A stretch of 64,000 bases of DNA from Myxococcota bacterium (GTDB lineage: Bacteria > Myxococcota_A > Bradymonadia > UBA7976 > UBA1532): contig CAUJDF010000075.1 of assembly GCA_963169045.1 (NCBI GenBank), forward strand, positions 16,689-80,688, in the 5' to 3' direction. Both the position numbers and the translations under genes were made by a program. Every line of letters begins with the position of its first letter. Position 1 is the stretch's first letter. Positions 36,305 to 43,809 of the stretch are shown here, one piece after another. A model generated the notes under the pieces. That model did not search any database. It saw only the letters and a program-made list of their open reading frames with translations, and was not told the DNA's origin.

Positions 36305-36940
36305 ATGCCGGTTCGACTGGGCGACACCGCCCCCGATTTCACCGCCGAGACCACCGAGGGCACCCTGCGGTTCCACGAGTACCTGGGCAGCTCGTGGGGC
36401 ATGCTCTTCTCCCACCCCAAGGACTTCACGCCCGTCTGCACCACCGAGCTGGGCGCGTTCGCCCGGCGCAAGGCCGAGTTCGACCACCGCGACGTGAAGC
36501 TCATCGGCATCAGCGTCGACCCGATCGAGTCGCACCGCGGCTGGATCGGCGACATCGCCGAGACGCAGGGCGCGGCGCTCAACTACCCGCTCATCGCGGA
36601 TCCCGAGCGCAAGGTCGCGACGGCGTACGACATGATCCACCCGAACGCGAACGACACCTTCACCGTGCGCTCGGTGTTCATCATCGGCCCCGACAAGAAG
36701 GTGAAGCTGATGTTGACGTACCCGGCGAGCACCGGGCGCAACGTCGACGAGCTGCTCCGGGTGATCGACTCGCTCCAACTGACCGCGAACCACGCCGTCG
36801 CCACGCCGGTCGACTGGAAGGACGGCGACGACTGCATCATCGTGCCGTCGCTCTCCGACGCCGACGCCAAGACGAAGTTCCCCAAGGGCTGGAAGACGCT
36901 GAAGCCCTACCTGCGCGTCACGCCCCAGCCGAACAAGTAG
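36305..36940 (+). CDS. 1-Cys peroxiredoxin (Prx6 type)
   Basis: [15 protein letters not shown] peroxidatic Cys motif. About 210 aa with the Prx6 C-terminal extension. SD GGAGG. Confidence 0.9.
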
Positions 36941-37073: not shown

Positions 37074-38858
<1,785 letters not shown>

Positions 38859-38861
38859 GCC

Positions 38862-39197
38862 TCACGCCGCTCGGGCGCGCGCGCGGCCGAGCGTCAGGGC
38901 CGCCGCGCCCAGCGCCAGCGCCAGCAGCGCGCCGAACACCGAGTTGTTGATCGACTCGCGGATGCCCGCCGCGAGGATGTCGGCCCGCTCGGACGCCGCG
39001 AACGTCTGCGCCGCCGCCGAGGTGCTCGCGAGCCCCGCCGAGAGCCCCACCATGCCCAGCGCGAGGCAGGCGAACGCGCCGCTCGCCGCGATGCGCGCGC
39101 CGTTCGACGCCCGCCGCGCGATCGCGCCGGCGCACGCGCCCAATGCGACCGCGAGCATGACCCACATGAACAGACCGCCTTCGCGCATGAACTCCAT
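38862..39197 (-). CDS. minimal MotA/TolQ/ExbB-like membrane protein (~111 aa, 3 TM)
   Basis: Start moved to ATG 39195-39197 (MEFMREGGLFMWVML), 5 nt after GAAGGAGG. The C-terminal pattern LGMVGLSAGL...AAGIRESINNSVFGALLALAL resembles the conserved TolQ/ExbB channel helices. The assignment is inferred. Confidence 0.55.
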   Translation of the reverse strand: MEFMREGGLFMWVMLAVALGACAGAIARRASNGARIAASGAFACLALGMVGLSAGLASTSAAAQTFAASERADILAAGIRESINNSVFGALLALALGAAALTLGRARARAA

Positions 39198-39240: not shown

Positions 39241-39256
39241 CGCACGCCGCGTGCCA
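39241..39256 (-). promoter_or_regulatory. sigma-54 (-24/-12) promoter, TGGCAC-N5-GTGCG, driving the ExbB-like gene
   Basis: The reverse complement of 39241-39256 reads TGGCACGCGGCGTGCG. The -24 element is perfect and the GC of the -12 element has correct spacing. About 45 nt upstream of ATG 39197, in a 186-bp intergenic gap. Confidence 0.55.
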
Positions 39257-39383: not shown

Positions 39384-41438
39384 TTACGGCGCGAGGCGGG
39401 GCGTCTCGGGGAGGCGGGCGGCGATCTCGTCGAACGACGCGTCGGCCGCGGGGGCGAGGGCGGCCGCATCGCCGGTGGGGCCGAGGGCGATCGGGAGGGC
39501 GCGCAGGTCGTCGGGCAGCACGAAGGCGGCGGCGGCGGAGGCGCGCGGGTCGGGCGGGGGACCGGGGCTGTAGAGCACGTCGACGGTACGCGCGCCGAGG
39601 TCCCGCGCCAGCGCGAGCACCGGGCGCAACTCGGACCACGGCACGCGACGGTCGACGGCGAGCACGAGGTCGGGCGGGTCGCCCTCGGCGATGCGGGCGG
39701 CGAGGGCCTGCGCGACGACGGCACGGCCGGCCTCGGAGGCGAGCGCCGCGCGCGCCGCGACGCGGACGCCGTCGAGCGACACGTCGCCGCGGCCGATCTG
39801 CAGCGTGGGGCCGACGCGCGCCGGTCCGGCACCCTCGCCGGCGGGCGGGTCGAGGCCGCGCCAGAGGGAGAAGCGCCCGGCGAGCTCGTCCCACAGCGGC
39901 GCGCGCTCGCGGGCGACCACGGCGACGAGGCCGGCCGCGCCGAGGAGGAGCGCGGCGACGGTGCCGAGGCGCGGGCGGCGGGCGCGGGCGAGGGCGACGG
40001 CCACCGAAGCCGCGAGCGAGACGGCGAGCGCCAGGCGGGCGCCCTCGGCGGCGACGAGCGCGTCGGCGCGCGCGCCGCGGGCCAGGCCGTCGCCCCAGAT
40101 CCCCGCCGTCGCCGCCTCGTGCCGCACGACCACCGCCGCCGCGAGCAGCACCACCGCCCCCGGGGCGCTCCGGCCGAGCGCGAGCGCCGCCGCCGCGAGC
40201 CCCGCGACCACGAGCGCCCCGGGATCGAGCGTGGCCGCGGCCAGCGCGAGGAGGGCGACGCCCGCCGCGATCCGCGCGGTGCGCGGCGGCGGCGCGGGAG
40301 GGGCGGGCCCCGCGAAGGCCCGTCCGGCGAGGACGGCGGCGGCGAGACCGAGGCCGAGCCACGCGTTCGCGAGCGACTCGGCGAGGCCGACATGGAAGAT
40401 CACGAAGCGTTGCGCCGCGTCGCTGGCGGCGACGGCGCGCATCGTCGCCGCGAAGCCCGCCGCGGCGCCGAGCAGGCCGGCGACCGCCGGGGCCACCGAC
40501 CACACCGGCCAGCGCAGGGCGAGCGCCGCGAGCGCGACCGGGACCGGCGCCAGCAGGCCACCCTCGCGGAGCCAGGCGCGCGGGTCCGACGCGCCGTGGA
40601 AGCCCAGCGCGACGAGCGTCGCGACGATCCCCGCCGTCGCGAGGAGCCGCGCCGGCACCCGGGGTCGCCGCCCGAACGCGGCGTCGCCCGCGGCCACGAA
40701 GGCGGCGACGTCGGCCGGCCGGTCGGCGGGCTCGCGGGCGAGGCTCCGGGCCACGAACGCCTCGACCTCGGCGGCGACCCCCCCCACGGGCGGCGGCGCT
40801 CCGGTGGCCACCGTGTGCAGCACCGCGCCGGGATCGTCGCCGGCCCACGGCGGCCGCCCCGCCAGGAGGTCGTAGAGCACGGCGGCGAGGCCGTAGACGT
40901 CGGTGCGGACGTCGGCGGGCGCCCCCCACCATCGCTCCGGCGCCAGGTACGCCGGCGTCCCGACGACCGCGCCGGACCGCGACGCGTCGCCCTCGGCGCG
41001 GCCGAGCCCGAAGTCGAGGACGCGCACGCGCCCCGACTCGTCGAGCAGCAGGTTCGCGGGCGACAGGTCGCGGTGCAGGACCCCTGCGGCGTGGGCAGCG
41101 GCCACGACCTCGGCGGCGCCGCGGACGAGCCGCCACGCCTCGGCCGGGGGCACCGGGCCACGGCCCGCGAGGCTCGCGCCGCGGACGCGCTCCAGCACGA
41201 GCGCCGCGCGCCCGTCCGCCGTGGTCGTGGTGCCGTGGAGGCGCGGCACGCCGGGGTGACCGACGCGCGAGAGCAGCCTCGCCTCGCGCTCGATGCGCGC
41301 CGCCTCGCCGTCGCGCGGGATCTTCAGCGCGACCGGCCGCCCGCCGGCGTCGACCGCCGCCCACACGCGCGCGGCGCCGCCCTCGCCGAGCAGGCCCTCG
41401 ACCACGTAGCCGGGCACCCGCGGCGGCGCCTCCGTCAC
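39384..41438 (-). CDS. Ser/Thr protein kinase fused to a polytopic membrane region and a C-terminal ExbD/TolR-like domain
   Basis: Its GTG start overlaps the upstream stop (GTGA). Kinase motifs GEGGAARV, VALK, HRDLSPANLL, DFG, YLAPE. Multiple Ala/Leu-rich TM helices. C-terminal LVLAVDRRVPWSELRPVLALARDLGARTVDVL resembles the ExbD periplasmic domain. Confidence 0.85.
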   Translation of the reverse strand: MTEAPPRVPGYVVEGLLGEGGAARVWAAVDAGGRPVALKIPRDGEAARIEREARLLSRVGHPGVPRLHGTTTTADGRAALVLERVRGASLAGRGPVPPAEAWRLVRGAAEVVAAAHAAGVLHRDLSPANLLLDESGRVRVLDFGLGRAEGDASRSGAVVGTPAYLAPERWWGAPADVRTDVYGLAAVLYDLLAGRPPWAGDDPGAVLHTVATGAPPPVGGVAAEVEAFVARSLAREPADRPADVAAFVAAGDAAFGRRPRVPARLLATAGIVATLVALGFHGASDPRAWLREGGLLAPVPVALAALALRWPVWSVAPAVAGLLGAAAGFAATMRAVAASDAAQRFVIFHVGLAESLANAWLGLGLAAAVLAGRAFAGPAPPAPPPRTARIAAGVALLALAAATLDPGALVVAGLAAAALALGRSAPGAVVLLAAAVVVRHEAATAGIWGDGLARGARADALVAAEGARLALAVSLAASVAVALARARRPRLGTVAALLLGAAGLVAVVARERAPLWDELAGRFSLWRGLDPPAGEGAGPARVGPTLQIGRGDVSLDGVRVAARAALASEAGRAVVAQALAARIAEGDPPDLVLAVDRRVPWSELRPVLALARDLGARTVDVLYSPGPPPDPRASAAAAFVLPDDLRALPIALGPTGDAAALAPAADASFDEIAARLPETPRLAP

Positions 41439-42949
41439 GGCCGCCGCAGCTCGAAGGCGCGGATGAGCTCGTAGAGGTGGGAGCGCGCGAGGTCGAGCCG
41501 CCGCGCCGCCTCGGTGACGTTCCACCCCGCCTCGCCGAGCGCCTCGAGCAGCAGGCGGCGCTGGAACGCGCGCGTCGCGCCGGCGAACGTCGCCGCCTCC
41601 GCCGCGGTCGACGCGCCGGGGAAGAGGTGCGCCGGCTCGACCTGCGCCGCGCCCTGCGCGCGGATGAGGCCCGCCTCGACGACGTTGGCGAGCTGCCGCA
41701 CGTTGCCCGGCCAGTCGGCGGCGGCGAGCGCGGCCACCGCCGATGGCGACAGGCGCGCGCGCGGCAGGCCGTGCCGCTTCACCGCGCGGTCGAGCAGCGC
41801 CCCGGCGATGGGCGCGATGTCGGCGCGACGCGCGTCGAGGCCCGGCAGCCGGACGGGCAGCACCGCCAGGCGCCAGTACAGGTCCTCGCGAAACGTCCGC
41901 GCGGCGACCGCCTCCTCGAGCGCGGCGTTCGTCGCGGCGACGATGCGCACGTCGGCCTCGAGCGGCTTCGTGCCACCGAGCCGGAAGTAGCGGCGACTCT
42001 GCAGGAACTGCAGCAGCTTGGCCTGGCTCGGCAGCGGCAGCTCTCCGATCTCGTCGAGGAACAGCGTGCCGCCGGCGGCGGCCTCGACCTTGCCCTCGAC
42101 GCGGCGGTCGGCCGCGGAGTGGGCGCCCTTCTCGGCGCCGAACAGCTCGCTCTCGACGAGCGTGTCGGGCAGCGCCGCGCAGTTGAGCTCGATGAACGGG
42201 CCGCGGGCGCGCCGGCTCGACGCGTGGATCGTGCGCGCCAGCTCCGTCTTGCCCGCGCCGGACGGCCCGAGCAGCAGCACGGTCACGTCGAGCGGGGCCA
42301 CGAGCGCCACCCCGCGCAGGACGTCCGCCAGCGCCTCGGATCGGCCGGCGAGCGCGTCGGCGCCCTGCAGCTGCGCGCGCCACGGCGCCGTCGGATCGGG
42401 ACCCGCCTCGCCGAGCCGGTCGGCCCAGGGCGCCACGGCGCGCGCGAAGTCCTCGAGCAGCCGGCGATCGGCCTCGGAGAACGGGCCGGGCGCCGGCCGC
42501 TCGGCCACGTACACCGCGCCGGCCCCGGCGATCGGCGCGCACATCACCGCGGCGAGGCGGCCGGCGGCCACCGACCGCCGCGACGCGAACCGCGGATCCT
42601 CATGGGCGACGGCGGTCGAGATGGTCTCGCCGCGCGCCAGCGCCTCGCGCACGATGCCTCGCGACAGCACCGCGTCGACCTCGTCGGGGTCGCAGGCGTG
42701 CGCGAGCAGGAAGCGCGGCGCGCCCGGCTCCCCCAGGGCGAGGTAGCCCTGGCGCGCGCCCACCGCGGCCACCACGCGGCGCAGCGCCTCCTCGAGCAGC
42801 GGCCGCGGATCCTCTGCGCCGGCCAGCGCGAACAGGCCCCGGTACAGGTCCCGCTCCGCGGTGAGTCGGGCGTCGGCGCGTGCTTCGGTCACGTCCGGCA
42901 GGATCGCCGCGGCCGACCCGGGGGTCAATTCGGGCGAGTGACGCGTCAC
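41435..42949 (-). CDS. GAF-domain NtrC-family AAA+ transcriptional activator with a degenerate GAFTGA loop (GAHSAA)
   Basis: Its GTG start overlaps the upstream stop (GTGA). GAF-like N-terminus, Walker A GPSGAGKT, Walker B LFLDEIG, R-finger region, HTH NVTEAARRLDLARSHLYELI. Confidence 0.85.
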   Translation of the reverse strand: MTRHSPELTPGSAAAILPDVTEARADARLTAERDLYRGLFALAGAEDPRPLLEEALRRVVAAVGARQGYLALGEPGAPRFLLAHACDPDEVDAVLSRGIVREALARGETISTAVAHEDPRFASRRSVAAGRLAAVMCAPIAGAGAVYVAERPAPGPFSEADRRLLEDFARAVAPWADRLGEAGPDPTAPWRAQLQGADALAGRSEALADVLRGVALVAPLDVTVLLLGPSGAGKTELARTIHASSRRARGPFIELNCAALPDTLVESELFGAEKGAHSAADRRVEGKVEAAAGGTLFLDEIGELPLPSQAKLLQFLQSRRYFRLGGTKPLEADVRIVAATNAALEEAVAARTFREDLYWRLAVLPVRLPGLDARRADIAPIAGALLDRAVKRHGLPRARLSPSAVAALAAADWPGNVRQLANVVEAGLIRAQGAAQVEPAHLFPGASTAAEAATFAGATRAFQRRLLLEALGEAGWNVTEAARRLDLARSHLYELIRAFELRRP

Positions 42950-43809
42950 CGCGCGGGGGGCGCGCTCTCCTCGCCGGCCGGCGGCGGCGGGGCGCAGCCG
43001 CGGAATCGCTCGTCGTCGCCGCCGCCCTCCTCGAACACGACCTTGCCGAGGAGCGCCTGCATCTCCGCCAGGTGCCCGTCGAAGTAGGCGGCTGGCGCGC
43101 TCAACGTCGCGACGAAGAGGCTGGTGCGCCACTCGTCGTCCTCGAGCAGCTGGGTCCGGTCGTCCTGGTTGAGGGCCCCGCGCCCCACCACCAGCCGGAC
43201 GCGGCGCATCACCGCCTCGGGGTCGACCTCGAGGTGATCGAGGTCGATGAAGTCGAGCGTCGCCCCGACGGCGGGCCGCCCGCCCACGGTCGACGTGTCG
43301 AAGGTGGACTGGCGGACCGCGAAGCGCCGGTGGACCTCGGCGCCGCTGGCGTGGCCCGCGTACGCGAACGCCGCCCAGGTGGACCAGGTGCCCCGCATCG
43401 CGTCGATGCGGCGGCTGAGCAGCACCTCGAGCGCCAGCTCGGCCGTCGTGGGCCGGGCGGCGATGGAGACCAGCTTCATCGTGGCGCCGGTGCGGCGGTG
43501 CTGAAGCACCAGGCTCTCGTTCTCGTTCTCGTGCGCCCAGGCGTCCTTCCTCGCGTCGCGCGGGCGCTGCGGCGCGAACTCGGTCTCGGTCCGCCACTGC
43601 CGCGCGCGCCAGTTCGACACGAACCAGTCGTCGTCGACGAAGATGCGCCGCCCCTCCACGCGCGTCGTCAGCGGCGCCCGCCAGCAGGCGGTGGGCTCGG
43701 CGAACTCCTTGGCGCCGTTCTTCTCGGTGAACGTCGGGCGCTGGCTCGTCACGCATGCCGTCGCGCCCGCGAGCAGGGCCGCTGCCGCGATCCGGTTCGC
43801 TCCCCTCAT
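42946..43809 (-). CDS. lipoprotein of unknown function (first gene of the EBP/kinase operon)
   Basis: MRGANRIAAAALLAGATAC lipobox. Balanced composition. No motif recognised. Confidence 0.65.
   Translation of the reverse strand: MRGANRIAAAALLAGATACVTSQRPTFTEKNGAKEFAEPTACWRAPLTTRVEGRRIFVDDDWFVSNWRARQWRTETEFAPQRPRDARKDAWAHENENESLVLQHRRTGATMKLVSIAARPTTAELALEVLLSRRIDAMRGTWSTWAAFAYAGHASGAEVHRRFAVRQSTFDTSTVGGRPAVGATLDFIDLDHLEVDPEAVMRRVRLVVGRGALNQDDRTQLLEDDEWRTSLFVATLSAPAAYFDGHLAEMQALLGKVVFEEGGGDDERFRGCAPPPPAGEESAPPAR

Follow-up and report, generated by a model that had tools for sequence, protein, structure and literature searches.

The DNA stretch analyzed here comprises 64,000 nucleotides (nt) of contig CAUJDF010000075.1 (positions 16,689 to 80,688, forward strand) from the Myxococcota bacterium assembly GCA_963169045.1; this entire stretch is hereafter called the window, and all coordinates refer to it. 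On the minus strand, the window carries a gene (39384..41438; GTG start codon at 41436-41438, stop codon at 39384-39386) that encodes a 684-amino acid (aa) protein consisting of a Hanks-type Ser/Thr kinase domain, a membrane region of nine predicted helices, and a C-terminal domain resembling the periplasmic domains of ExbD and TolR. Directly upstream, on the same strand, lies a gene for a 504-aa regulator of the GAF/AAA+ sigma-54-interaction/HTH_8 enhancer-binding type (41435..42949), which is translationally coupled to the kinase gene, and 186 nt downstream of the latter follows a minus-strand gene for a small membrane protein of 111 aa and three helices (38862..39197; ATG at 39197, Shine-Dalgarno sequence GAAGGAGG). 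This three-gene arrangement, regulator, kinase, small protein, is the usual module in the related loci examined below.

The G+C content is 68-81% in the window and 75-80% around the kinase gene, and because long open reading frames arise by chance in such DNA, an open frame alone, even one that translates into 684 aa with no internal stop, is weak evidence of a gene. Several further observations establish that 39384-41438 is a real gene: the match of its product to the Pkinase family (see below), the overlap of the GTG start codon with the TGA stop codon of the upstream regulator gene in the form GTGA, the agreement of the protein's N-terminus with the consensus start of the family in an alignment, an exactly matching metatranscriptome contig of 469 nt within the kinase gene (40809-41277), and the existence of 129 relatives of the non-kinase part. 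Exact metatranscriptome matches were also found on the regulator gene and on the junction between the regulator gene and the lipoprotein gene that precedes it, and a contig with a single mismatch spans almost the entire small gene (38775-39192); these contigs indicate presence only. The minimum of metatranscriptome depth falls in the spacer between the kinase gene and the small gene, which fits a separate promoter for the latter. Metagenomes from biofilm and wastewater contain the window's own sequence.

The kinase domain (residues 11-241, 40716..41408, minus strand), which had been recognized in a reading made from the DNA sequence alone (hereafter, the sequence-only reading), is matched by Pfam PF00069 with 108.7 bits, far above the cut-off of 31.7 (E-value 4.4e-31). 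The partition of the protein into kinase, membrane region, and C-terminal domain given in that reading was also right, with boundaries accurate to within about 10 residues as judged from Pfam, hydropathy, and the AlphaFold models. The Gly-rich loop is present, and the catalytic residues are found at the expected motifs, namely, Lys39 in VALK, Glu52, Asp124 in HRD (122-124), Asn129, Asp142 in DFG (142-144), and APE (166-168). Apart from one position of the catalytic loop, discussed below, these catalytic residues are invariant in the alignment of 71 full-length family members. Among the NCBIfam models, the best match of this domain is NF033483 (PknB/Stk1 with PASTA repeats), at 157.7 bits, far under the cut-off of 450.

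The nine helices are followed, in the AlphaFold model, by a beta/alpha domain at residues ~545-655. Its core (residues ~545-625, 39564..39806, minus strand), delineated by Foldseek, by Pfam matches of homologues, and by hhalign, contains Asp596 within a D-R-x-V-P-W motif, and this aspartate is invariant in 71 of 71 relatives; the motif quoted from this region in the sequence-only reading, LVLAVDRRVPWSELRPVLALARDLGARTVDVL, is the best-conserved stretch of the entire domain. The core is succeeded by a family-specific extension (residues 626-684, 39387..39563, minus strand) with the motifs AP-P-E-A and L-P-x-D-F, an extra strand, and the last helix, in which P634 and E636 are conserved and D644 is invariant. 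A model of residues 505-684 built with 30 family sequences (predicted local distance difference test, pLDDT, 85.3; predicted template modeling score, pTM, 0.79) shows a hairpin followed by strand, helix, strand, helix, and strand. When this model was compared with the whole PDB using Foldseek, the three best matches were periplasmic domains of E. coli ExbD (8p9r_B, 8vgc_A, and 8vgd_B; probability 0.98-0.99, target TM score 0.75-0.78, root mean square deviation 2.0-2.6 Å over ~80 columns), and TolR (5by4, 2jwk) and ExbD (8pek, 8p9r_A) took four more of the top 14 places. Altogether, ExbD and TolR fill 7 of these 14 places, with probabilities of 0.63-0.99, and the other matches have target TM scores below 0.2 or probabilities of at most 0.57.

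Comparison of sequence profiles points in the same direction. Pfam ExbD (PF02472) was matched by five of the 30 homologous domains and is the only Pfam family matched more than once; the homologue P0020 exceeded the cut-off (26.5 bits compared with 25.4, E-value 7.3e-6) over positions 40-124 of the 128 in the hidden Markov model (HMM), that is, over the whole periplasmic part of the ExbD model, P0023 reached 24.6 bits, and three further homologues scored lower. Alignment of the family with ExbD and TolR by hhalign yielded a P-value of 0.0016 over 68 columns in the expected register, and a search of the PDB with the family profile retrieved ExbD 8pek in the same register (E-value 0.72); in both, D-R-x-V-P-W...L..A...G...V.L of the family is aligned with A-D-K-x-V-x-Y...L..AG...V.L of ExbD. 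Thus, similarity to ExbD/TolR, as proposed in the sequence-only reading, was detected at the level of structure (Foldseek) as well as at that of profiles (5 of 30 homologues, hhalign), although Pfam ExbD was not matched by the window's own sequence. Judged from the predicted structure and the profile comparisons, the C-terminal domain is a diverged member of the ExbD/TolR fold that, through its relatives, most likely belongs to the same superfamily as ExbD and TolR.

The best PDB match of the family profile (E-value 7e-9), stronger than any natural PDB chain, was the designed protein 7uek (OT3), aligned through D-E-S-x-T-W...LGVKK-I-V-V-L. This match was set aside as a look-alike beta-alpha-beta repeat rather than a natural relative; 7uek is probably an idealized version of the same beta-alpha-beta unit.

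A canonical ExbD has a single membrane helix with an essential aspartate near its cytoplasmic end (D25 in ExbD, D23 in TolR), and this helix is located inside the ExbB/TolQ ring. The C-terminal domain of the window protein is not a canonical ExbD: there is no Asp-bearing single helix and no ExbB/TolQ partner. When E. coli ExbB, ExbD, TolQ, TolR, MotA, and MotB were used as phmmer queries, neither the 64-kb window nor any of 12 related loci gave a match, and no PF01618 gene was called in loci L016-L020.

A word-indexed search of 5.8 billion proteins yielded a single relative, a metagenome protein with 40% identity over the matched region. An exhaustive profile search with residues 262-684, in contrast to that single hit, produced 129 representative proteins at E ≤ 1e-3, 114 of them at E ≤ 1e-10, so that the family comprises at least 129 clusters. 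Nearly all these relatives are 650-900 aa long, and the matched part begins after ~280-370 residues; as judged from the sequences, they are a coherent family in which a kinase, a membrane region, and a C-terminal domain follow one another. Ten loci were retrieved from species-representative genomes with a seven-sequence alignment (a three-sequence alignment found none, and a 30-sequence one was too diverse for patterns), and all belong to Polyangiales or Polyangiaceae, including Minicystis rosea DSM 24000; every named genome with a family member is from Polyangiales. In three relatives (P0110, P0119, and P0023), the tail is ~200 residues longer and combines a Cys-rich linker with an AgmX/PglI C-terminal domain (NF033768, cut-off 40 bits; scores of 73.1, 65.5, and 41.9 bits; E-values 1.5e-20 to 7.8e-11); one of these tails also touches the TonB C-terminal model (E-value 0.0011). 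The AgmX/PglI domain, which is TonB-C-like, ends the gliding proteins GltG and GltJ and is periplasmic there. Its occurrence in the three relatives locates the C-terminal portion of family members on the periplasmic side and shows that an ExbD-like and a TonB-like domain have been joined in evolution. The window protein shows no match to NF033768 and ends ~30 aa past the ExbD-like domain. Among the other variants, P0023 also carries a TPR stretch, and P0038 (1137 aa) has two kinase domains ahead of the membrane region. The database names of the relatives of both the window protein and the small protein are all "hypothetical protein" or unnamed. In the searchable literature, full-text queries that combined ExbD with kinase gave no relevant result and no description of such a fusion, and kinases are not mentioned in a 2025 survey of periplasmic force transducers.

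The membrane region (residues ~263-510, 39909..40652, minus strand) displays some 8-9 hydrophobic segments in the hydropathy profile (residues 260-513). The AlphaFold model of residues 255-684 (pLDDT 90.6, pTM 0.88) contains nine helices, at 263-278, 286-309, 316-338, 341-376, 386-402, 406-420, 426-447, 454-485, and 492-523, packed into a compact monomeric bundle; such a pTM for a two-part chain suggests that the periplasmic domain is confidently placed on the bundle. Helices 5 and 6 are short in the model and may form a hairpin, which would leave the parity unaffected. The last helix runs out of the membrane in the model and leads into a conserved LDPP linker (residues 511-540, 39819..39908, minus strand), in which L529, P531, and P532 are nearly invariant. 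Across the 71 full-length members, G279, D596, and D644 are invariant, and G294, G351, E354 (68 of 71), W448, R454, and R457 are nearly so; three of these, G294, G351, and E354, belong to helices 2-4 (residues ~288-376, 40311..40577, minus strand). Helix 9 contains no acidic residue in the window protein and its clade, and in most relatives, which constitute the larger branch of the family, it carries an aspartate near the periplasmic end. Neither Pfam nor NCBIfam has a model covering the membrane region or the small protein, a Pfam scan of the membrane regions of 24 relatives gave nothing consistent, and a Foldseek search of the nine-helix bundle against the PDB returned only low-TM helical noise, with no meaningful relative and no stator protein. 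Given the odd number of modeled helices and the net positive charge of loops 4-5, 6-7, and 8-9 across the family, we infer that the kinase is cytoplasmic and the C-terminal domain periplasmic: if the kinase is inside, an odd number of crossings would put the opposite end outside.

The small gene is separated from the kinase gene by a sigma-54-type promoter, TGGCACGCGGCGTGCG (39241..39256, minus strand), located 43 nt upstream of the ATG. An element of the -24/-12 type, (T/C)GGCACG-N4-xxGC, is present 23-94 nt upstream of the small gene start in 12 of 12 loci (the window, L001, L002, L004, L005, L009, L011, and L016-L020), and random 250-nt windows attain an equal score in 2.4% of cases. The small-protein family consists of 42 unnamed members of 107-123 aa, one of 148 aa. 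In L001, a close metagenome locus, a copy with 47% identity occupies the same place beside a kinase homologue; overall, the small gene is found downstream of the kinase gene in 10 loci. Among the loci in which this is seen, L004, L005, L009, L011, L016, L017, and L019, it immediately follows the kinase gene except in L004, where ~2 kb intervene. L020 contains an orphan small gene that has the sigma-54 element, adjoins an integrase gene, and has no kinase gene nearby. An HMM built from 48 small proteins gives end-to-end alignments with kinase helices 2-4 in many family members (best score 34.4 bits, E-value 8e-11), a relationship for which a single-sequence BLASTP comparison of the small protein with the kinase gives an E-value of 3.3 only. 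By this sequence criterion, the small protein is a free paralogue of helices 2-4. The two share the conserved glutamate, which is E354 in the kinase and E81 in the small protein, where it is invariant (40 of 40) within G-(L/I)-x-E.

The regulator encoded upstream matches Pfam Sigma54_activat (PF00158, E-value 2.4e-60) along with GAF, AAA_lid_14, and HTH_8. Its orthologue, ~50% identical, lies directly upstream of the kinase gene in six genome loci, a gene of the same type (GAF/Sigma54_activat/HTH_8) precedes the kinase gene in L016, L017, and L019, and the count of loci with the regulator directly upstream of the kinase is 10. Enhancer-binding proteins of the textbook kind require the GAFTGA motif for contact with sigma-54. 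At 42110-42127 (minus strand), the window regulator reads ESELFGAEKGAHSAA, with GAHSAA replacing GAFTGA; the six orthologues (L005, L006, L009, L011, L012, and L013) read GAHST(A), so that GAHS(T/A)A is found in all seven sequences. The replacement of GAFTGA is thus conserved, yet the same module contains a strictly conserved sigma-54 promoter.

Taken together, these observations suggest that the window protein is an envelope-sensing, receptor-type Hanks kinase of the inner membrane with feedback by a small protein, a reading to which we assign a probability of about 60%. Under this scheme, the chain would cross the membrane an odd number of times within the nine-helix bundle, which would display the ExbD-like domain on its periplasmic face, where this domain, no longer part of a motor, would become the sensing or docking surface of the kinase. 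ExbD binds TonB (PDB 8p9r/8vgc), and TolR binds peptidoglycan (PDB 5by4); by analogy with these relatives, the domain in question could bind a strand of a periplasmic partner or the cell wall. The bundle would then pass the state of the periplasmic domain to the kinase, for which the co-translated GAF regulator appears to be the most likely substrate or partner. The sigma-54 promoter in front of the small gene would most likely be activated by the same regulator, and the small protein, in turn, probably binds the membrane domain of the kinase and feeds back on signaling.

Several points weigh against this reading. The phosphotransfer, the binding of a ligand, and the contact between the small protein and the kinase are all proposals made from sequences and models, and the topology likewise derives from a predicted model and a mild charge bias. 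Three kinase loci (L004, L007, and L008) are without the regulator, the small gene is absent from at least two (L008 and L012), and the candidate activator of a sigma-54 promoter is a protein without GAFTGA. In the catalytic loop of the window kinase (41052-41075, minus strand), which reads HRDLSPAN, Ser126 replaces the Lys of HRDxKxxN, so this copy may be a weak enzyme or a scaffold. On the side of the C-terminal domain, the Foldseek E-values of the ExbD/TolR matches are only 0.07-0.4, modest values that can be attributed to the small size of the domain (75-residue target), and neither the C-terminal 138 aa nor the C-terminal 180 aa of the window protein match Pfam ExbD, even at E ≤ 10; NCBIfam yields no match to this domain either.

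The last two points are those from which one could argue that the resemblance to ExbD/TolR is convergent and that the domain is a sensor module of other descent, built as a generic two-layer beta/alpha sandwich; the designed protein at the top of the PDB profile search could be cited to the same effect. We find such convergence very improbable: ExbD is the sole Pfam family matched by several homologues, in one case with a score exceeding the curated cut-off and with coverage of the full periplasmic part; ExbD and TolR account for half of the top Foldseek places; independent methods agree on both the motif and the register of the alignment; and the TonB-C-like tails of some relatives fit a Ton/Tol context. 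The substitution at position 126, for its part, raises the question of whether the protein encoded in the window acts as a pseudokinase or scaffold, with an output other than its own phosphorylation activity and with membrane and periplasmic segments that still assemble with partners. Lysine is present at this position in 65 of the 71 relatives, and the serine is confined to the window protein; however, threonine occupies the position in five relatives, which argues that it tolerates change, Lys39, Glu52, Asp124, Asn129, and Asp142 are all intact, and the gene is kept in frame and transcribed. Loss of activity in this copy therefore seems unlikely to us and, in any case, would be compatible with the receptor-type reading of the family.

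The third alternative retains the energetics of the Ton/Tol systems: the family could be a self-contained descendant of a Ton/Tol-type motor, an ion-coupled device fused to a kinase, in which helices 2-4 and the small protein are minimal ExbB/TolQ-like subunits, helix 9 with the C-terminal domain is the ExbD-like subunit, and proton flow, or a load or mechanical pull on the periplasmic domain, is coupled to Ser/Thr phosphorylation. One ExbB-like unit would then be built into the kinase, the other would be made on demand from the sigma-54 promoter, and the TonB-like tail of some members would reach the outer membrane. This proposal draws on the genuine relationship of the C-terminal domain to ExbD (Foldseek, Pfam on homologues), on the tails just mentioned, which resemble those of the GltG/GltJ partners of the AglRQS motor, and on the Asp in helix 9 of most family members. 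Moreover, helices 2-4 and the small protein may have the N-out, three-helix, C-in layout of ExbB, with which the kinase model and the charge distribution are consistent, and carry the invariant or nearly invariant membrane Glu of G-(L/I)-x-E in the third helix; it is over the GLFGTVWG...PGIAE motifs that hhalign aligns them best with ExbB/TolQ. A three-helix layout with an acidic residue is, however, not specific to MotA/TolQ/ExbB, and the identification of the small protein and helices 2-4 as a mini-ExbB failed in every search. Pfam was negative with seven and then with 40 small proteins, for which MotA_ExbB (PF01618) is not among the 25 most-matched families; among the 24 kinase membrane regions, there was one noise-level MotA_ExbB match (E-value 4.2); hhalign against ExbB and TolQ gave P-values of 0.18-0.36 and a probability below 1%, with a shallow template to which the PDB alignments added only one new sequence; the PDB profile search was devoid of ExbB, TolQ, and MotA; and the Foldseek search of the bundle, as noted, found no stator. 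In addition, the window clade lacks the acidic residue of helix 9, which, in the other members, is at the periplasmic end, unlike D25 of ExbD at the cytoplasmic end, and the modeled bundle is a compact monomer rather than a 5:2 ring. We accordingly keep a motor origin of the membrane parts only as an unlikely alternative to the receptor-type kinase.

Two GTGA start/stop overlaps in succession (42946-42949 and 41435-41438, minus strand) chain the regulator and kinase genes to a further upstream gene (42946-43809, minus strand), which encodes a 287-aa lipoprotein with the lipobox LAGATAC and without a Pfam family. The lipoprotein gene was considered and rejected as a part of the module because it has no counterpart in the related loci. 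Just beyond the module on the other side, on the plus strand, are genes that, judged from their translations, encode a peroxiredoxin-like protein (36305-36940) and a phosphoenolpyruvate carboxykinase-like protein of the GTP type (37074-38858); the latter gene converges on the small gene, with 3 nt between the stop codons. Because of the peroxiredoxin-like gene, we considered whether the window regulator could be of the type of PexR, the regulator of peroxiredoxin genes in Myxococcus. This identity was rejected: PexR, a GAF-type enhancer-binding protein, keeps GAFTGA (PMC12754779). In L016 (1-1787) and L017 (2-1453), a gene for an AAA (PF00004) ATPase precedes the module, and in L016, this gene is itself preceded by one for a secretion-type MshEN/T2SSE ATPase; the two loci also have unnamed downstream genes (~185 aa and ~686 aa) in common.

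To our knowledge, ExbD/TolR domains have been encountered only as parts of proton-driven envelope motors, namely, Ton, Tol-Pal, and their relatives. Here, an ExbD/TolR-like domain appears to form the extracytoplasmic terminus of a Hanks kinase, to which it is connected by a confidently modeled nine-helix bundle without counterpart in Pfam or the PDB. The component parts are of known kinds; the combination and the three-gene circuit are new, and the family, which occurs in soil and wastewater myxobacteria and travels with the regulator gene and the small membrane protein driven by sigma-54, is undescribed. If interpreted correctly, it points to a route by which diderm bacteria could inform a Ser/Thr kinase about the state of their envelope and would be a diderm counterpart of the PASTA kinases of Gram-positive bacteria. 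The circuit is compact: the loop of the regulator is conserved in a form other than GAFTGA, the sigma-54 promoter is strictly conserved, and the small protein copies a part of the sensor. It bears on the question of whether sigma-54 can still be driven by enhancer-binding proteins that lack GAFTGA. Should the less probable descent from a motor turn out to be true, the kinase would be a mechanosensing or energy-sensing one, of a kind so far undescribed in bacteria.

Comparison with the closest known systems brings out both likenesses and differences. With ExbD/TolR (PF02472), the window domain shares the modeled fold, the signature D-(K/R)-x-V-x-(Y/W)...(A)G...V-x-L around the third strand and second helix, and the position directly after a membrane helix that is predicted to run from inside to outside; the window domain, however, is attached to a nine-helix bundle and a kinase instead of a single helix, the preceding helix has no Asp, no exbB/tolQ gene is in the neighborhood, and there is an extra ~60-aa extension. 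GltG and GltJ, which belong to the Agl-Glt gliding system of Myxococcus, have in common with three members of the kinase family, not with the window protein, the AgmX/PglI C-terminal domain, which links the family to the Ton/Tol-type periplasmic modules of myxobacteria; these proteins lack a kinase and work with the TolQR-like AglRQS motor, none of the components of which were seen near the window gene. The regulator has the same GAF/AAA+/HTH_8 layout as NorR and PexR and also adjoins a sigma-54 promoter, but those two keep GAFTGA, whereas the window regulator and its six orthologues have GAHS(T/A)A and are paired with a Hanks kinase.

MgrB, acting on PhoQ, is a small membrane-protein feedback regulator of a sensor kinase. 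The analogy with the circuit considered here would lie in a small membrane protein whose gene adjoins those of the signaling system that it likely binds and that probably induces it; the differences are that, in the present case, the small protein is paralogous to a three-helix segment of the kinase itself, that it has a sigma-54 promoter, and that the kinase is of the Hanks rather than the histidine type. The PknB/Stk1 kinases with PASTA repeats resemble the window protein in having a Hanks kinase in the cytoplasm that is connected, across the membrane, with an extracytoplasmic domain related to proteins of the cell envelope; in PknB, the connection is a single membrane helix leading to PASTA repeats, whereas the protein described here, from diderm myxobacteria, has nine predicted helices and a domain of the ExbD fold.

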